Both the position numbers and the translations under genes were made by a program. From the NCBI GenBank assembly GCA_036475395.1, contig JAZFYE010000126.1, positions 6,850 to 70,849 on the forward strand: a stretch of DNA of 64,000 bases, read 5' to 3'. Each line of letters opens with the position of its first letter. Position 1 is the first letter of the stretch. This document shows positions 22,391-30,972 of this stretch, piece by piece. The stretch comes from Phycisphaerales bacterium. Lineage in GTDB: Bacteria > Planctomycetota > Phycisphaerae > Phycisphaerales > SM1A02. The notes under the pieces are model-generated. The model worked only from the letters and a program-made list of their open reading frames with translations, was not told the origin of the DNA and ran no database searches.

Positions 22391-23446
22391 CTAGCCGCCG
22401 TCCCCCCCACTGAAAAGATGGCTGAGATGCTTGAGCGCTTCGGGGCTCAGATACTCAGCGATCTCAACGTAGCTCGCTGACACGAGCCGCTTGGCCCCAC
22501 CCAGCAGCAGGGGCACCGGACTCGAGGGCTCGTGGTTAGCATAATACCGACAAAGCCGGTCAAGTGCCAGGCGGACATCCTCCCGCGAGCGAATCTCACC
22601 GGAGTTCGGGCTTGCCGCTCCGGCGGCGCCGGTCGCTGAAGCCGCCTCGGCGGTCGAGACGCCGATGCCACGGCGAGCCATCTGAGCACGCAGGACCGTC
22701 AGGATCTCGCCCAGGGCACCCAACAGTGGCTTGCCATCGGGCGCTCTCTCAGGACCGACCTTGGACGTGAGGATCCCGTTGATCTGTTCCGCCTCCCCCA
22801 TCGCCGTCACCACGGCCTGCTCCATCGCCGTGAGCCTCTCCGGCGGCGTGTCCTCGAAGGCGCCGTCGATCGTGGCCATTTCTGGCACCTCTTCACCTGC
22901 GGAAACATCCGCGTGAAATCGCTCATCCGAGGCTGCGATCCCAATGTCCCGTAGCGAAAACCGCCCCAGCTGCCGCGAATCGGTTAGCGGACATTCGTAC
23001 AGCTTGCGAATGAACTCGATTCGATCCCTGTAGGCTCCCAGCGGGGTATACAAAGACTCAAGCGTGTTGAGGCGTTCAGTCGGGTCGTTCCCGTCGTCCG
23101 GATCGAGTTGGGGGTGAACTTGGTCCCAGTACTGCTCGAGCGTGCGACGCAAAAGCGCGAGACCTTCCGCAACTCCCTCCCATCCTTCCGTGACCAACTT
23201 CGCCACGCAGAGCAACGTCCCAAGGCGAAGGTCCTTCGTCTGACCCAGCAACTCGGTACAACGATCAAGCACGGCCGGCCAGTCCGGATTTTCCGCCGGC
23301 TTGATTGTCTCGCCAATCTGCTGTTCGGGCATTCCCTTGGCCAGTCCCTCGATCTCGGTATACGCCGCTTCGTAGACCATGCTCCGCCCACATGGATGGT
23401 CTTGATCGACGGGAGTCAACAGCGCTTCTAGATCAAACGAACCCAT
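22391..23446 (-). CDS. tssA: T6SS protein TssA (ImpA_N family)
   Basis: MGSFDLEALLTPVDQDHPCGRSMVYEAAYTEIEGLAK is an ImpA N-domain. The C-terminus HEPSSPVPLLLGGAKRLV is typical. I chose ATG 23446; the upstream part of the track ORF is low-complexity. Confidence 0.85.
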   Translation of the reverse strand: MGSFDLEALLTPVDQDHPCGRSMVYEAAYTEIEGLAKGMPEQQIGETIKPAENPDWPAVLDRCTELLGQTKDLRLGTLLCVAKLVTEGWEGVAEGLALLRRTLEQYWDQVHPQLDPDDGNDPTERLNTLESLYTPLGAYRDRIEFIRKLYECPLTDSRQLGRFSLRDIGIAASDERFHADVSAGEEVPEMATIDGAFEDTPPERLTAMEQAVVTAMGEAEQINGILTSKVGPERAPDGKPLLGALGEILTVLRAQMARRGIGVSTAEAASATGAAGAASPNSGEIRSREDVRLALDRLCRYYANHEPSSPVPLLLGGAKRLVSASYVEIAEYLSPEALKHLSHLFSGGDGG

Positions 23447-23636
23447 GTTCCTTCTTGCCCGGGATGTCGCCGACTGGCGGCTGTTCGACGTCGTCGCGTC
23501 AACCGCCCCTTCGCGTTCTGCTAGGGAAACGGCGGCATCGCCCTTGAACGCCCCGCCGCTCAGTCGCACGACACGGCCCTGTCACAGGTCTCCTCTGGTC
23601 ATTCTACGATTACGGCGCGCGGCGCGCAGCGAACGA

Positions 23637-26600
23637 TTACTCTCCTTGCTCAGGCATCGTCCTGACCGCTTCCAATACGTCCTGGAAAAAACTCTGCGTC
23701 ACGGGAGGCTTGAAATCATCCAAAATGAAGCCTCTCGGCCTGCTGAGTTCGTATCGCGTCGGCCCTGCAATGCTCAGCTCTTGGAGCACTTGATCCAGAA
23801 GACGAAGGTCCGCCAGGGCGACTCGGTTCGCGACGCGTACGAGATAAACTACAAACCCCTCAGGGGTGGTGGCCTCCTTGGCTCTGTCTGCCGTGTCCTG
23901 ATAGTCGTTCCACGCGACCTTAAGTCGATCCCGAACATCGTTAGGCGCGTCCACCGGTGCGAGTTGCTTGTAGCGGTCGAGCGAGCCTTGCGTCAGCGTT
24001 GGATGCATTCTGTCCAAAAGTATTGTGTGTATGTCGGACGGGAAATCGACTCGGGTTTCGCCCGAATCATCAAACAACGCTCTACCGGCAGAGAGCGACT
24101 GTTCCTCCGGGGCGGTGAGCGATCGTGCCCTGATTCGAAGGTTCCGCAGGAGTTCCTCCACAGCCGTGGCGCCCAGTGTGAGTCCCTGCTCAATCTTTTC
24201 GGTCTCTGACTCACGCACCACGGCGCCTGCGATCGTCACGGCGACGTTGGCGTTTGTCGGCCCCTGCGCCGTCAGATCGAAGAAGACTCCATGGGAATGC
24301 ATCAGATCGGCGGAGGTAATCTCTTGCCCAAAGGCCCGCATGATGAAGCCTTGTAACGTGCCCAGGGCGTCGCCGTCACCGTTGGGGTTCGCAAACAGGA
24401 CGATACCGCCTCCCAGCACAATCGGGTTGACGCTGAAGAAGAATCGGCCCCCGGCCACAAAATCAAGGCCTAGATCGAAGATGATGTTGCCGAACGCATC
24501 GATGACGAAACCGGGTTCGCGGCTGAGCAGGAAAATCTGACCCGCGTTCACGATCAAATCACCTAGGGTATTGATGTCACCCAGGGTTGCGGTGCCGCCC
24601 AGCAAATCGATCAGCAGGTCGCCGAGCACGGTCAGCTTTTGATTCTGACCCATCGTGAAGTTCGCGGCGAAGATCCTCAGGTGACCGGTCGAGCCGATGG
24701 TAGCGAACGCGGGTACCGAGTTCAGCGCTTGGTTGAAGATCACGTCGCCGGTCGAATGGATCTCGAAAACCGCGTCGTCAAACAGCATGAAACCGGCCAC
24801 GTCTGTCTCGAACCCGGCCAGCGCCGCGTTGACGCCAATATCACCCTGGAACAGGGCATCTCCGCCAGTCTTGATAAACAGGAGGAATGGCCCGTCGATC
24901 GTGCTGCGGAAGATGATGCCGACGACTCCCAGATCGATGAGGTCTGCATTACCGATGAGGATCACGGCGTCGCCGAACTCCATGCCGTCAAGAACCGTGA
25001 TATCGCCGCCGATGAAGGTGACACCATCGACAAAGAGGTGGCCGACAGCCTCAATGATGTCCTGGAACGTGGTCGTGTCGGCATCGACGGAGAGATCGAA
25101 CGCGTGGCCGTGGATGGCGCCCTCGAACAGGATGTCGTCTCCCTCAAAGAGCGTATCGTGACCGAGGTCAACCTCGCCTTCATAAGTCTGATCGCCGCTT
25201 GTCGTGATCAAGCCGCCGTTGATTTGAACATCATCTTCAACGGTCAGGTCCCCCGCTCGCACGTCGACCGCCCCATCGAGCCGGATGCCAGCGCCTCCGC
25301 CGAGCGTCAGATTGCCGCCCATGGTTTTCGTCAGACTTTCTTGTGCCCATAGCGATCCGGTCACGGCATCGATGCGCTGATTACCGGCGCCGTCCAGTAT
25401 CCCGTCTCCCATGAGGGTGATGTTGTCGCTCGCCGTCAGATCACCCTCGACGGAGAAGTCATCCTGAATCGTCAGGCTGCCGTTGACGACGTCCACGTCG
25501 CCGTTCAGGTCGATGCCGACATTGCCGGCCAGTGTCAGGTTACCGGCGCCCGTCTTGTGCATATCGCCGTCGGCCGTCAGCACGTCGCCTGCGACGACGC
25601 TCTGATTGCCCGTACGATCAAGGACAACCTCGCCCATCAGGTTCAGATCACCGGTCGTCGCCTGCGTCAGCGCGCCGCCCAGCTTGATGGTCGTACCTTG
25701 CAGCGTCAGGTCATCGGTGGCCTTGGTCACGTTCCCGTCGATGTCCAGAATGCCGCCCGCCAAGGCGGTTTGATCACCGGACCCATCAAAGACAACATTG
25801 CCCATCAGGTTCAGATCACCGGTCGTCGCCTGCGTCAGCGCGCCGCCCAGCTCGATGGTCGTACCCTTCAGCGTCAGGTCATTGGTGGCCTTCGTCACGT
25901 TCCCGTTGATATCCAGAACGCCAGTGCCGGCGTCGGCTGTCTGGGCGCCGGTCCCGTCGAAAACAACGTTGCCGTCAAAGAGGATTCCATTGGTGGTCGT
26001 GACGTCGCCGGCCACTTTCGCGTAGCCGACGACCTCCAGGCTCTTCAGCGCCGTGATAGATCCAACATTCCCATCGAAATCGATGGTACCGGCCTCTACG
26101 TTCAAACTCTGGCCACCTGCTGTAAGGGCGTCCACCGTGTCGGTGAAGTGAATGGTGGCCGATCCGCCCGCCATAAGCTCAACATCATCAATGAGGATCA
26201 CAGAACCGTCGTAGGTCTGATCACCCGTCGTGTCGACAGTGGGAGCGACGCCGTTTGACCCGAGCCGAATGTCATAAGCATTGCCAACTGTCATAGTGAC
26301 TTCATGTGCGACAATAGCGCCCGTGTGCTCGATATCACCGGAAGCAGCCGTAAAGACGACTTCACTTCCAGATGCGTCGATCGTGCCGGAGTTATTAATG
26401 GCCATGGCCCACAGGTCGCCCGCGCCAAGAACGACTTGGCCGTTCGTCACACTCAGGGTGCCGGTGTTAGTGACGCCAGTTGTGCCGGCCACAGTGCCAC
26501 CGCCACCGGTGAGCTGAACGCTGACCCCTCCGCCAACCGGCGTGAGCGTGACGCCACTAGCTGAGATCATAGTGATCACACCGCCGTTACCGGCAATAAT

Positions 26601-27140
26601 CGTACCGTGATTGGCGACCGTTTGGCCGAGAAGATGGACGGCATGATTCGCAACAATTTGCCCGTTGTTCGTGACCGGGCCGTTCAAGGTGAAAGTGTTG
26701 ATGTCGTTGATGAAGTTGCTATTGGTGATGTTTCCCGCGGCTGCATAGATTCCGCCCACATTCACGACGGCGTTGTTTCCAAAAATAATCCCGGCTGGAT
26801 TGGCGAAGAAGACAAATCCATTGGCCAGAAGCGTGCCGTCGATGTTGGTCACATCATTGTCGGTGATTCGCATGAGGACTCTCGCAAGAGAGCCCGGTTG
26901 AAGGAACTGAACCGTCTCGAACGACGCGATGTCAAAGGACTGGCATTGGAGAATGGCGTGGTTGCTGGCCTGAATCAACCAGAAGTTCCCGTTCTGGCTA
27001 ATCACGATGTCGCCGTGCTGTACCTGGCACTGGACCGGACCGGCGGTCGTGCTCGGCGCGGTCAGTGCAACACACAAAGCACCGATGGCGAGGCTGGCGA
27101 TCCAACGGCCGCTGCGTAGGTCAAAGCTCAACTTTGTCAT
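23637..27140 (-). CDS. two-partner-secretion exoprotein (TpsA; filamentous-haemagglutinin-type N-terminal TPS domain, beta-helical repeats)
   Basis: Signal peptide MTKLSFDLRSGRWIASLAIGALCVALTAPSTTAG. TPS-domain motifs ILQCQSFDIASFETVQF, IDGTLLANGFVFFANPAGIIFG and VNVGGIYAAAG. ATG 27140 has GAGGAG 6 nt upstream. 1167 aa. Confidence 0.85.
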   Translation of the reverse strand: MTKLSFDLRSGRWIASLAIGALCVALTAPSTTAGPVQCQVQHGDIVISQNGNFWLIQASNHAILQCQSFDIASFETVQFLQPGSLARVLMRITDNDVTNIDGTLLANGFVFFANPAGIIFGNNAVVNVGGIYAAAGNITNSNFINDINTFTLNGPVTNNGQIVANHAVHLLGQTVANHGTIIAGNGGVITMISASGVTLTPVGGGVSVQLTGGGGTVAGTTGVTNTGTLSVTNGQVVLGAGDLWAMAINNSGTIDASGSEVVFTAASGDIEHTGAIVAHEVTMTVGNAYDIRLGSNGVAPTVDTTGDQTYDGSVILIDDVELMAGGSATIHFTDTVDALTAGGQSLNVEAGTIDFDGNVGSITALKSLEVVGYAKVAGDVTTTNGILFDGNVVFDGTGAQTADAGTGVLDINGNVTKATNDLTLKGTTIELGGALTQATTGDLNLMGNVVFDGSGDQTALAGGILDIDGNVTKATDDLTLQGTTIKLGGALTQATTGDLNLMGEVVLDRTGNQSVVAGDVLTADGDMHKTGAGNLTLAGNVGIDLNGDVDVVNGSLTIQDDFSVEGDLTASDNITLMGDGILDGAGNQRIDAVTGSLWAQESLTKTMGGNLTLGGGAGIRLDGAVDVRAGDLTVEDDVQINGGLITTSGDQTYEGEVDLGHDTLFEGDDILFEGAIHGHAFDLSVDADTTTFQDIIEAVGHLFVDGVTFIGGDITVLDGMEFGDAVILIGNADLIDLGVVGIIFRSTIDGPFLLFIKTGGDALFQGDIGVNAALAGFETDVAGFMLFDDAVFEIHSTGDVIFNQALNSVPAFATIGSTGHLRIFAANFTMGQNQKLTVLGDLLIDLLGGTATLGDINTLGDLIVNAGQIFLLSREPGFVIDAFGNIIFDLGLDFVAGGRFFFSVNPIVLGGGIVLFANPNGDGDALGTLQGFIMRAFGQEITSADLMHSHGVFFDLTAQGPTNANVAVTIAGAVVRESETEKIEQGLTLGATAVEELLRNLRIRARSLTAPEEQSLSAGRALFDDSGETRVDFPSDIHTILLDRMHPTLTQGSLDRYKQLAPVDAPNDVRDRLKVAWNDYQDTADRAKEATTPEGFVVYLVRVANRVALADLRLLDQVLQELSIAGPTRYELSRPRGFILDDFKPPVTQSFFQDVLEAVRTMPEQGE
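25620..25955 (-). repeat. 2 x 168-bp near-identical in-frame tandem duplication inside the TpsA gene
   Basis: cccatcaggttcagatcaccggtcgtcgcctgcgtcagcgcgccgccca occurs at 25633 and 25801. The protein units are DINGNVTKATNDLTLKGTTIELGGALTQATTGDLNLMGNVVFDGSGDQTALAGGIL and DIDGNVTKATDDLTLQGTTIKLGGALTQATTGDLNLMGEVVLD... Confidence 0.85.
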
Positions 27141-27207
27141 GGCTTCTCCTCGATTCGAACTGTCACCGCAAGGCACGTCACCCCGCAGCCACCCGTGCGG
27201 TCACGGC

Positions 27208-29517
27208 CTAGTACACGATCGTGGCCGCGAAATGGACTTCACTCGAGCCTGAGTCCACCCGGCCAGGCACGTCCTCCAGGGCAAAGCCCCAGTCCACGCG
27301 AATGCTTAGGTTCGACTGGTATTGTAACTCAAAACCAAAACCGGTGCCGATCAAAGTCTCGTTTTTCTCGAACGAAAACGGCTCGGAGTTGATGGTATGT
27401 CCGATATCCAAGAAACCGCGGAGGATGAGATCCCAGTCGGCAGGTCCGTAGGCATGCTGAGGCCGCCATCGGAATGGTTTCCCGAGGAACTGGCCCGGGT
27501 TGGGCTCAAAGCCGAACGCGTGAGAGACGTGGAATCGGTATTCGACGGTTCCAAGCAGCACGGTATCGCCGACCACCACCGACTCGGGATAGCCGCGAAC
27601 GGAGTACAGGCCGCCAGCAACCTGCTCCTCCTGTGGGATCAAACGGTTCTCGAACGCATACTGGCCACGAAACCGCAAGGCGATCTCGTGTGTGAGCGAT
27701 GGCGGCTGGGACGAGTCAGCCCCGAAACCGCGGAATAGCGGCTCGAGATAGAACGACTGCGCAACATCCCACCGCAATACCGTCCAATCGTCGTCAGGAA
27801 AGAGACGTCCGAGGCGGTTTATCGCACGCCGGTCAACGTCGGTGACACTCGCGACGTTCCACTCGATCGTAGCCGAGACATCTGTTCGTGCCTCCTCCGT
27901 GTGCCGCTGGAGCCGAAGGCCGGCGTACGGGAGAAAGAAATCTTCTTCGCCGCGAAGGCCGACGATTTGGTTGTCGACTTCGATGTTCTCGTAGCGAGCT
28001 CCGCCGACGAGGTCCAGGAAGAGTTGCCGGTCCTGGAAGACGTTCCAGACCAGCTCACCGCCGACCTGCCACGACTCACCAGTGAAGCGCTCATCGGCGA
28101 AGCCGACTTCGGAGGCAATGAACTGGCTCCACAACGCATAGGCGCGCCATCGCCAGTAGTCCGAATCAAACACTCTAGCGTCATACGAGCCGCTCACCGC
28201 GTGCGACTCGTCGAAACCCGCGGTGATGTACTCGAAATTGAACAGGTCGTCGTTTCCCGTAAGCTGGTTGTGAAAGAGTCCAAAGCGGTACCGCCATTCG
28301 TCGGTTTGTTCGGTTCCCGTGTTGGAGATCTGCGAGTAGAAGAGGATCTCTTTGTTTTCGCTGACGAGATAGTCGAGCGAAACACCGAACGTCTCTGTCG
28401 CAGGGGCCAGCGAGGCGTCGACGCGACGACCAGGGTGCCGCGATAGGCGGAAGAGGAAGTCGTCGAGTTGGTCCTTCTTGAGAATGTCACGTCGCGGCTC
28501 GTCGCCTTCCTCATACGGCTGGAACGGCGAGGACGCTCTGATGAACGCGTGGCGCTTGTTGTCCTCACGCTCTTCCAGCGGAATCCGATCGCCGGCGGCG
28601 AGCGTGCGAACCTGCGTGACAAGACCGGTGATGATGAGCAGATCAAGCTCGGTGCGCCCTTCCCGAAGGTCGCGTCCCTGGTTGAGGTCCAGTTGACCTT
28701 GTGCGGGCACAACCTGAACGGCCATGAACTCGCGATCGGTCAAATACTTCAACACTCCTTCCAGGACCATCTGGATGGCACCGGCCGTGAATGTTTCCGC
28801 CCGGTCGCCGCTCATATCCGCCGGTCGAAACGTCATCGACTCAATGTCGGGACGCCACGCGACGTACTCCGCGTCGGTCTGCGTCAAGCTGGCTTCGGCA
28901 GATGCCAGCACTTCATCCAGAGGTGGCAACTCGGGGTGATCACCAGCGGAGTAGGACAGATTGAACCGGCTTATCTGGAATGATGGACCTTCGTAGGAGA
29001 TCAAGAGCCGCAGCTTGGTCCGCTCGCGGGGGCGCAGATCCTGTCCCGTTGTCGGATCGATATCGTTGGGGCTCGGAGCCACCAGCACGTTCAGCGATAC
29101 CTCTCGCCTCGCGAACGAGTCAGCGATTGCTTGGCGGATCACATCGATAGCGCTCGCGTAGAGCCTGATCGGACCCGATGCGGTGAGTTGCTGAATCGTC
29201 AATTGCTCCGTTGGTGATCCGGGACGGGGTGCGACGTAGCCGTCCGCGGTCGGACTCAGCTTGATCTCCAGAACGGGGAGCGTGGTGTTGCCCACTTCTG
29301 AGATTGACGGCAGAAACGGAAGCCCTCGCACATATTGAGCCTCGAACGTGCCGACAACATAGCTCGGGCCATCTGCATCAAGCGGTTGCACGACACTCTC
29401 GGTCATCTCGCGATCCTGCGAATACGCGCTGGCCAGGCCAAACCAACACAGCGCAAGTGGGTTCCACAAAAGGAGGACCACTAGGATTCTTGCTGCTTGC
29501 CTGAGTGACTGGGTCAC
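27208..29517 (-). CDS. TpsB-type outer-membrane transporter (ShlB/FhaC/HecB family)
   Basis: The C-terminal barrel motif QVAGGLYSVRGYPESVVVGDTVLLGTVEYRF is ShlB-like. The likely start is GTG 29517 (AGGAG 7 nt upstream), giving signal peptide (M)TQSLRQAARILVVLLLWNPLALCWFGLASAYSQ. The upstream 93 codons of the track ORF are Arg-rich filler. Confidence 0.8.
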   Translation of the reverse strand: MTQSLRQAARILVVLLLWNPLALCWFGLASAYSQDREMTESVVQPLDADGPSYVVGTFEAQYVRGLPFLPSISEVGNTTLPVLEIKLSPTADGYVAPRPGSPTEQLTIQQLTASGPIRLYASAIDVIRQAIADSFARREVSLNVLVAPSPNDIDPTTGQDLRPRERTKLRLLISYEGPSFQISRFNLSYSAGDHPELPPLDEVLASAEASLTQTDAEYVAWRPDIESMTFRPADMSGDRAETFTAGAIQMVLEGVLKYLTDREFMAVQVVPAQGQLDLNQGRDLREGRTELDLLIITGLVTQVRTLAAGDRIPLEEREDNKRHAFIRASSPFQPYEEGDEPRRDILKKDQLDDFLFRLSRHPGRRVDASLAPATETFGVSLDYLVSENKEILFYSQISNTGTEQTDEWRYRFGLFHNQLTGNDDLFNFEYITAGFDESHAVSGSYDARVFDSDYWRWRAYALWSQFIASEVGFADERFTGESWQVGGELVWNVFQDRQLFLDLVGGARYENIEVDNQIVGLRGEEDFFLPYAGLRLQRHTEEARTDVSATIEWNVASVTDVDRRAINRLGRLFPDDDWTVLRWDVAQSFYLEPLFRGFGADSSQPPSLTHEIALRFRGQYAFENRLIPQEEQVAGGLYSVRGYPESVVVGDTVLLGTVEYRFHVSHAFGFEPNPGQFLGKPFRWRPQHAYGPADWDLILRGFLDIGHTINSEPFSFEKNETLIGTGFGFELQYQSNLSIRVDWGFALEDVPGRVDSGSSEVHFAATIVY

Positions 29518-29925
29518 GCTTGTCTCCTGATTGAGTCTTCGGCGAATCCGGGGGAGGTCACCTGAATGTCGCGTCGATGATCGATCTGCGCTAGTAGGGT
29601 GGTCAAGCAATCTCCGCCGACCCTGGAATCCGTCCTCGGGGTGTAGCCCGACCTGTCCGGTCGCTCTGTTCGATACGGGCCTGACCGGGAGATACCAGCT
29701 CCAGGAGCGAGAGGCAAACATTCGTTGGCCGGGCGATTCGGCGCGACCTCGTGAGTATCTGGACGTTTCGCCCGCACGATCGCCATCCTCTAACAACTCC
29801 CATTACCTACAGCCGCCATCCTACCTCGTCCTGGAACGGCACGTCAAGCTGGGGGTGATGGAACCAACAGTAGCGAATCCGCCCACTCTGCTCCTTGAAG
29901 CGAGGCCCGATGGCCATAAGTCCCC

Positions 29926-30972
29926 TTATCCGAGGTTCGACGAGCCCAACTCGTGGATTGCCTCGTTCGTTGCCTCCTCGACAAGCTGACGTGTCCGCTC
30001 GGCGAACTCGTCTTCGACCGAGTAGGGGACTTCAGTGGTAAGAGGAAGTTCCGCGGGGGGCACACGGAGACAGAAGAAGTGACTCGCCGTCACCGGTCCC
30101 AAAAGGAGATCGACCCAGTCGGCGTCGATCGGGCAAATGACCCACATTGGCACTCCATCGGCCAGCATTTGGCGGAGGAAGGTCGCCCAGGCGACAAACG
30201 CCCCCGAGGCTGAATCGGCGCAGCGCGGGACGCGCATCGCACTGGAAGAGAGCGTGGCGGCCCGCGTTCGCCATGTCGTTTTGCGATCACTTTCCCCCTG
30301 CTGCCGGCAGCACTCAGGCAAGTCCCGATCGATGTGATACAGCAGTCGGATCAGTCCCGTTCGGTCGGCACCCATCTCGGTGCACTGGGCGAGGGTCGCC
30401 AGTGACGACATCCCGGATGGATGGTCGTCCGATCCCATCAGGGTCGTCATCTCGGTTCGCATCTCCGCCGAATGGCGCGAGAGAATTGCGCCCACCTCAT
30501 CTCCTGTTACCGCGGATCTGCACTGATCCTCCAACCGTTCCAATCGTTGAAAGGCCAGCGGTGCAGCTTCCGAGAAAGAGACATGCGGCGTTTCCAGGCA
30601 GACCGCCATCGGATACCGCGATCGCCCCTTCCCATCCACTGAGGACCAGATCCGTCCGAACACCCAGCTTCCCTGATCGTACCAACCGAAAAAGTGGTGA
30701 AAGCCCGGCAGCGTGCGTTCGGGGCCGAGTTCATCCCATGCACCGGAATCGATGTTGCCGCCGATGCCTTCAACGTAGAGCACCTGCTTTGCCTGCGTGA
30801 GACGCTCGGTTTCCAGTCCCAGATCGGGGATGTGATCATCCCAGGCTGGATGCTTGCCGAAGGCGCCGAGATGCAGTTGGGGCATGGTGTCGGGGCGGCG
30901 CCCTGTCAGCTTGCGGATCATGTTCCCAAACAGGGGTATGACAGTCCTCCTTCGGCTCACGGCCGAGGTCAA
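29926..30972 (-). CDS. tagF: T6SS-associated protein TagF (DUF2094-like)
   Basis: LGAFGKHPAWDDHI resembles the TagF N-terminal GfyGKlPxxGDF motif. It lies immediately after tssM, as in many T6SS loci. The start is uncertain: TTG 30972 overlapping the tssM stop, ATG 30921 or ATG 30885. Confidence 0.65.
   Translation of the reverse strand: MTSAVSRRRTVIPLFGNMIRKLTGRRPDTMPQLHLGAFGKHPAWDDHIPDLGLETERLTQAKQVLYVEGIGGNIDSGAWDELGPERTLPGFHHFFGWYDQGSWVFGRIWSSVDGKGRSRYPMAVCLETPHVSFSEAAPLAFQRLERLEDQCRSAVTGDEVGAILSRHSAEMRTEMTTLMGSDDHPSGMSSLATLAQCTEMGADRTGLIRLLYHIDRDLPECCRQQGESDRKTTWRTRAATLSSSAMRVPRCADSASGAFVAWATFLRQMLADGVPMWVICPIDADWVDLLLGPVTASHFFCLRVPPAELPLTTEVPYSVEDEFAERTRQLVEEATNEAIHELGSSNLG

Follow-up and report, generated by a model that had tools for sequence, protein, structure and literature searches.

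The stretch of DNA analysed here, in the following called the window, comprises 64,000 nucleotides of contig JAZFYE010000126.1 from a Phycisphaerales bacterium and contains a type VI secretion system (T6SS) locus, in which the two genes of a two-partner secretion (TPS) system, tpsB and tpsA, are embedded on the same strand as the T6SS genes. By the gene order found in related genomes, this pair is a conserved accessory module of those T6SS of the Phycisphaerae that have a short TssA and belong to the TagJ/TagF type. It sits at the junction of two gene blocks, the membrane block (TssK, TssL, TssM, a TagF-like protein and a PpkA/TagR-like kinase-like protein) and the sheath block (TssA, TssB, TssC and Hcp). 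In the window, the genes for TssK, TssL, TssM and a protein of 348 amino acids (aa) are located upstream of the pair, and those for TssA, TssB, TssC, Hcp, TagJ, TssF, TssG and ClpV downstream of it, all in the same orientation. Based on sequence comparisons, we lean towards the explanation that an autonomous surface fibre has been recruited by the T6SS, whose membrane and regulatory block it would serve as an accessory for contact, tethering or sensing.

Both genes have the features of a classical TPS (type Vb) pair, with TpsA as the predicted Sec-dependent beta-helical fibre. This had already been proposed for the 769-aa and 1167-aa products in a preceding inspection by a model that ran no database searches (the sequence-only reading), and it is now borne out by family and motif matches. 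TpsB matches the Pfam family ShlB/FhaC/HecB (PF03865) with 38.7 bits (cut-off 22.7) and possesses the Omp85 loop-6 VRGY motif in the form GGLYSVRGYPE, which is invariant across the TpsB alignment. In TpsA, an N-terminal signal peptide can be seen in the translated sequence, and the TPS domain is the sole Pfam family found (PF05860, 57.8 bits, cut-off 33.5, E = 2.1e-15); it is also recognized by TIGR01901 (61.4 bits, above cut-off). The nearest solved TPS domains are those of EtpA (E = 5e-20), HMW1 (1e-16) and HxuA (3e-14). Only 67 nt separate tpsB from tpsA on the same strand, and this pairing is kept in all related loci. The longest open frame of tpsB spans positions 27208-29796; the GTG at 29517, which the sequence-only reading had chosen as the start of the 769-aa protein, is preceded 6 nt upstream by the ribosome-binding site AGGAGA and opens a typical signal peptide.

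The TpsB homologues, which are 40-88% identical and occur in more than 524 loci, mostly differ from the protein of the window in their periplasmic part. Residues ~49-173 and ~176-295 of TpsB are copies of one module (internal BLASTP: 34% identity, E = 4e-10), and in the 862-aa frame the residues 140-266 and 271-390 align to the same segment of homologues in tblastn. The first of these copies is an extra one and is missing from most homologues. Their position and the internal repeat suggest that both modules are POTRA-like, and the Pfam scan assigned no family to the TpsB N-terminus. A search of the TpsB profile against solved structures gave no match, the protein being too divergent for any solved TpsB.

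The position of the pair was compared in samples of increasing breadth. Among 40 genomes of relatives, four possess a TssA (one of the same genus, two of the same family and one of another family of the order), and in all four TssM, the counterpart of the 348-aa protein (orf348), TpsB, TpsA and TssA follow each other in this order, with TssB and TssC next after TssA wherever the stretch reaches. A recent strain-specific insertion is rejected by this synteny. The sequence-only reading had likewise argued against a recent insertion from the GC content, which is 0.55-0.62 over the pair and no different in the flanks (0.56-0.66), and both the composition and the gene order of the relatives agree with it. 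An adjacent tagF and tssA with the pair elsewhere, which it had named as the contradicting arrangement, was not found in most relatives.

In a sample of 401 genomes of the class, two T6SS types can be distinguished by the length of TssA (~350-400 aa versus 520-590 aa). None of the ~28 genomes of the long-TssA type has a TPS domain. The short-TssA type is present in ~39 genomes, eight of which are undecidable due to contig breaks, and in 25 of the 31 decidable ones the pair lies inside the cluster. For 20 of these 25 the linkage was read from coordinates on the same contig, for four from a TpsA C-terminus at a contig end beside TssA and for one from the order TssA...TssM, orf348, TpsB, TpsA. 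In a sample of the phylum (again 401 genomes), 87 genomes have a TssA above the family cut-off and just nine of these a TPS domain; in seven of the nine, among them genomes from two families that lie outside the class, TssA directly adjoins the TpsA C-terminus. The gene order is thus also found in families of other classes of the phylum. Since the pair occupies the same position in most related clusters, it is apparently a standing accessory of this T6SS.

The search with a TpsB profile in 185,579 species genomes revealed more than 524 relatives, of which the best 80 derive nearly all from Phycisphaerales or from metagenome-assembled genomes of Phycisphaerae; T6SS genes flank about 44 of these 80. 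Loci linked to a T6SS cluster strongly on the TpsB tree. The distances of TpsB and TssM co-vary over 32 linked loci (Mantel r = 0.82, 0 of 2000 permutations), but shared ancestry alone would yield this result, so it indicates that the linkage is old and does not imply a function. Two of the loci are labelled Acidimicrobiales and Cyanobacteria (L061 and L076) and have a planctomycete-type block of TssL, TssM, TagF-like protein and TpsB; these records are probably mis-binned contigs.

The pair also occurs beside an incomplete set of T6SS genes. In 15 genomes, the locus consists of (orf323), TssL, TssM, the TagF-like protein, a kinase-like/FGE protein, TpsB and TpsA, without TssK or TssA. TssC is absent genome-wide in 13 of these 15, the other two being ordinary full systems, and it was found in all five control genomes in which TssA follows TpsA. 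All genes are intact in the one reduced block that was checked. Judged by its gene content, the reduced block is the membrane and regulatory module of a T6SS whose contractile tail was lost, the module being kept together with the TPS pair. The TssC-less loci are L040, L041, L046, L049-L051, L058, L063, L079, L087, L102, L105 and L111. According to gene neighbourhood, there are three contexts of the pair, namely alone, with the membrane and regulatory block only, and inside a full T6SS; by this distribution the pair is probably autonomous as a secretion system.

Two parts of TpsA evolve very differently, as far as the alignments tell: the central shaft is variable and the C-terminal ~420 aa are constrained. 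The comparison with a close strain (L135, a Logan contig from SRR29093005, aligned to window positions 23506-29592) illustrates this. There, tpsB and the ends of tpsA have a nucleotide identity of 93-95%, and the signal peptide and the C-terminal half of TpsA are 91-97% identical, whereas the shaft is unalignable and shorter. In other close pairs, the shaft is likewise the region with the lowest identity and many indels, and the final bin is usually the best conserved one. The last ~420 residues could be aligned in all homologues compared, irrespective of T6SS linkage and of the total length, which ranges from 916 to 4323 aa.

The sequence-only reading had described the C-terminal ~200 aa of TpsA as unrecognised. 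This is true with regard to Pfam scans and a sequence-profile search against the PDB, neither of which found a family; yet the region is conserved throughout the TpsA family. An AlphaFold model of the C-terminal 470 aa, built from 21 sequences, has a mean pLDDT of 83.7 and consists of a beta-helix up to about residue 950, a disordered linker and a helical domain, which when modelled alone reaches a pLDDT of 82.8 and a pTM of 0.75. In Foldseek searches of the PDB, the 470-aa model had no match below E = 0.4 and the helical domain alone none below E = 1. With a profile of this domain, 1052 cluster representatives were retrieved among 1.84 billion proteins; wherever a full-length protein stands among the 150 best matches listed, with lengths of up to 6151 aa, the domain is located at the extreme C-terminus. 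Going by this profile search, the helical domain is a sizeable unannotated family of TpsA C-terminal domains.

The arrangement of tpsA and tssA bears on the question of whether the pair is transcribed with the T6SS genes. In 21 loci, the stop of tpsA and the start of tssA are -4 to 495 nt apart (median ~77 nt), mostly under 150 nt. Two loci have a 4-nt overlap of the ATGA type, and in a third locus the gap is 2 nt and the ribosome-binding site lies inside the end of tpsA. Since the two genes are often less than 100 nt apart or overlapping in relatives, one transcript running into tssA is suggested; the spacing in most lineages looks as if the pair were co-transcribed with tssA. In the window and its congener the distance is 190 nt. 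The sequence-only reading had noted this spacer and one of about 400 nt in front of tpsB, and both were found at the expected size (positions 23447-23636 and 29518-29925, the latter being 408 nt long). The 408-nt spacer is 82% identical to that of the congener, which is about as conserved as the adjoining coding DNA, and contains a promoter-like TTGACG-18-TAGGAT at 29847-29818 that is kept in the congener.

From these data, the following mode of action can be envisaged for the recruited fibre. TpsB would export the fibre without help of the T6SS, the variable shaft would be its exposed, ligand-contacting part and the conserved C-terminal module might anchor it or stay in the envelope. In T6SS-positive cells, the fibre could then act as a contact, tether or sensor factor and work together with the block of TssL/TssM, TagF-like and PpkA/TagR-like proteins, so that the sites at which the weapon is assembled or used would be those at which another cell is held. 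The suggestion of the sequence-only reading that the pair coordinates cell contact with T6SS firing is therefore a reasonable idea, but it has to be qualified, since the pair is also present with the reduced block in sheath-less genomes and alone in genomes without TssM.

A number of observations weigh against such a recruitment. Six of the 31 decidable short-TssA loci do not have the pair beside tssA (four of the six belong to one genus, and one genome is without any TPS domain), so the T6SS does not need the fibre. Vice versa, five genomes of the family to which the window belongs (94-96% complete) possess a TPS pair of the same family but no TssM, and three of the five were shown to have the conserved TpsA C-terminal module; the fibre thus needs no part of the T6SS. 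T6SS linkage changes at least eight times on the TpsB tree. In the close strain L135, homology stops at window position 23506, within the tpsA-tssA spacer, and genes for FG-GAP and dockerin-like proteins are found there instead of tssA. The long spacers of the window make separate transcription, from a promoter of the pair's own as the sequence-only reading had supposed, possible there, the promoter-like sites of the scan are no more frequent than in shuffled sequence, and terminator-like sites were found in neither spacer. Moreover, the topology supposed for the TpsA C-terminal module is taken by analogy from FhaB and CdiA.

Several of these points would fit an independent adhesin or biofilm fibre that rides in the T6SS cluster or is co-regulated with it without any mechanistic interaction: the stand-alone pairs, three of them with the same C-terminal module, the short-TssA loci from which the pair is missing, the repeated gain or loss of linkage, the long spacers and the conserved promoter-like hexamers upstream of tpsB. 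We regard this as possible, if rather unlikely. The position of the pair is kept down to ~40-45% identity of TpsB and TssM and across classes, in two lineages the tpsA stop codon overlaps the tssA start codon, and the retention of the pair together with TssL, TssM, TagF-like and kinase-like genes after loss of the sheath is hard to explain as a chance neighbourhood.

A tighter connection than recruitment can be imagined as well. TssL, TssM, the TagF-like protein, the PpkA/TagR-like kinase-like protein and TpsB/TpsA might together form a single trans-envelope machine for surface-fibre display or contact sensing, with a type Vb system coupled to the membrane complex of the T6SS; this machine would serve as contact trigger of the T6SS where the tail is present, as in the window, and as an independent device where the tail is lost. 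This is an unlikely proposal. Doubtful to a greater degree is a purely structural partnership, in which TpsB and the TpsA C-terminal module would dock on the divergent periplasmic part of TssM and supply a TssJ-like outer-membrane anchor, the resulting trans-envelope assembly being able to persist without a contractile tail. For this speak the block that is retained in the 13 TssC-less genomes and the failure to detect TssJ (PF12790) and IcmF_C (PF06744) in the genome of the window (78% complete) and in five linked genomes. However, both are equally undetectable in five genomes that have a T6SS of the long-TssA type and no TPS, so that lacking them does not distinguish linked loci. The partnership also does not fit the short-TssA loci without TPS, nor the occurrence of the TPS family in genomes that have no TssM, three of which carry the same C-terminal module. 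A further point in favour is the fast evolution of TssM, which of all core genes of the cluster has diverged most between the two congeners: compared with the same-genus relative (L019/L036) it is 66% identical, and its neighbours TssK, TssL, TssC and ClpV are 92-95% identical. In TssM, Pfam recognises only the N-terminal IcmF-related domain.

Finally, a toxin at the TpsA C-terminus that is delivered on contact and complements the T6SS, in the manner of contact-dependent inhibition (CDI) or of a cytolysin, as the sequence-only reading had considered, is highly improbable and largely refuted, since, notwithstanding the tpsB-then-tpsA order as in cdiBA and the unannotated C-terminal domain, the conservation pattern is the reverse of that of CdiA, with the C-terminus as the best-conserved region (see the identity to L135) recognisable family-wide, and TpsA has no VENN motif, no FHA-1 or FHA-2 repeat families in Pfam, no plausible immunity open reading frame in the 190-nt gap, which leaves no room for one and in relatives mostly measures -4 to ~150 nt, and no toxin fold by PDB sequence profile or Foldseek.

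The favoured explanation, recruitment of an autonomous fibre, can be compared with systems already described. EtpB/EtpA, HMW1B/HMW1, HxuB/HxuA and FhaC/FhaB all consist, like the pair of the window, of a VRGY-containing Omp85-type TpsB encoded beside a TpsA with signal peptide, TPS domain and beta-helix. In contrast to these classical type Vb adhesins, the pair of the window is embedded in a T6SS cluster, its TpsB has a duplicated POTRA-like module and its TpsA ends in a conserved helical domain without known relative. CdiB/CdiA share the order of the genes, the filamentous TpsA and, as supposed for the pair, a role at cell contact, but the combination of a variable shaft with a conserved C-terminus and the lack of VENN, FHA repeats and immunity gene are the opposite of what is found there.

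Among T6SS accessories, TasL (of the T6SS2 island of Vibrio fischeri), TslA, TagM1 and TagQRST have been termed 'Target Recognition Factor' accessories, and the review of accessory genes lists no TPS system (PMC13584744). The fibre, if it acts as proposed, would be functionally similar to these factors. TasL is likewise a large envelope or surface protein from a T6SS locus, thought to promote contact and optional rather than core (PMC13584744), but it is a lipoprotein without homology to the TPS passenger TpsA. The TagQRST-PpkA-TagF system of the H1-T6SS of P. aeruginosa is similar in another respect, since clusters of the type found in the window also possess TagJ, a TagF-like protein and a PpkA-like membrane protein with a TagR-like FGE domain. 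TagR of P. aeruginosa belongs to the FGE superfamily, and modelling and loop mutants suggest that a signal from the outer-membrane protein TagQ reaches PpkA via TagR (PMC13713981). The outer-membrane component is the TagQ lipoprotein in P. aeruginosa and the TpsB/TpsA pair here; by analogy, an outer-membrane component encoded beside TagF-like and PpkA-like genes could pass a signal from the surface on to the switch. In Xanthomonas citri, the regulon of TagK is reported to comprise the T6SS locus and two genes predicted to encode a type V secretion system (T5SS) (PMC13584744); in that account T5SS and T6SS are under common control, and the T5SS genes are counted apart from the T6SS locus. No description of a TPS pair inside T6SS clusters was found in our literature searches.

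T6SS accessory genes decide when and where firing happens, and the target-recognition factors known so far are few and nearly all from Proteobacteria. Here, a type Vb fibre is kept inside the T6SS clusters of an entire planctomycete class, and with the membrane and regulatory genes only after loss of the tail. Should the link prove functional, two secretion systems would be joined here in a new manner, and this would offer an entry to the question of how targets are brought into reach by bacteria whose envelopes are unusual. The features of the window on which the comparisons are based are given in Table 1.

Table 1. Features of the tpsB-tpsA pair and its surroundings in the window (positions counted from the first nucleotide of the window)
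Feature	Position	Strand	Remarks
tssA, short type, 351 aa, downstream neighbour of tpsA	22391..23446	(-)	TIGR03363 221.5 bits
tpsA-tssA spacer, 190 nt	23447..23636	(-)	no credible open reading frame; 24- and 28-aa Arg-rich frames only
tpsA, TPS-domain beta-helical exoprotein	23637..27140	(-)	ATG 27140, stop at 23637; 1167 aa
C-terminal helical domain of TpsA	23640..24170	(-)	residues ~1003-1179 of the 1179-aa frame; undescribed domain family
Conserved C-terminal module of TpsA, ~420 aa	23640..24899	(-)	last beta-helix turns, disordered linker, helical domain
Variable central beta-helix shaft of TpsA	25540..26700	(-)	no alignment with close strain L135
168-bp in-frame tandem duplication inside the TpsA shaft	25617..25922	(-)	Tandem Repeats Finder: 1.8 copies, 92% matches
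TPS secretion domain of TpsA	26355..27011	(-)	residues 56-274 of the 1179-aa frame; PF05860; ANPAGI motif
tpsB, Omp85/ShlB-family outer-membrane transporter, with signal peptide	27208..29517	(-)	769 aa
Two tandem ~125-aa POTRA-like periplasmic modules, TpsB N-terminus	28633..29373	(-)	internal BLASTP repeat
Non-coding spacer upstream of tpsB, 408 nt	29518..29925	(-)	position held by kinase-like/FGE gene in ~21 related loci
TagF-like gene, 348 aa, upstream neighbour of tpsB	29926..30972	(-)	weak TagF_N (PF09867) match
tssM, 1479 aa	30969..35408	(-)	IcmF-related_N 203.7 bits

The sequence-only reading had located the pair between tagF and tssA. The position and the identity of tssA stood, and the true start of TssA is the ATG at 23446 ('MGSFDLEALL'). 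The name tagF fits the upstream neighbour only in a weaker sense, since the 348-aa protein matches TagF_N with 15.7 bits (E = 0.015), which is below the cut-off of 27. Nine of 18 homologues of this protein also match TagF_N, the best with E = 2e-4 and all below the cut-off, and a profile search of the 348-aa protein against solved structures gave no match to TagF. In all linked loci, the TagF-like gene directly follows tssM, and in many it is fused to a kinase-like/FGE protein. A kinase-like/FGE gene lies between the TagF-like gene and tpsB in ~21 linked loci, where it is often fused to the former. Frames of 790-1660 aa with a TagF-like N-terminus that continue into the kinase-like/FGE protein represent a TagF-PpkA/TagR-like fusion and occur in L041, L044, L046, L050, L054, L055, L058, L063, L065, L071-L073, L075, L076, L080, L100 and L108.

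The genome of the window has a second TpsB/TpsA pair (L024, G000:C20:5286-8206) with no T6SS genes nearby. Compared with the proteins of the window, the identity is 48-49% for its TpsB and about 42-46% for its TPS domain, and its TpsA frame of 706 aa gave no match to the conserved C-terminal module. Rfam gave no match over positions 23300-30100 of the window. A 499-aa frame after tpsA in L040 was rejected as a gene, since it is an Arg-rich shadow frame. In another locus (L127, G450:C41), vgrG is located between tpsA and tssA.

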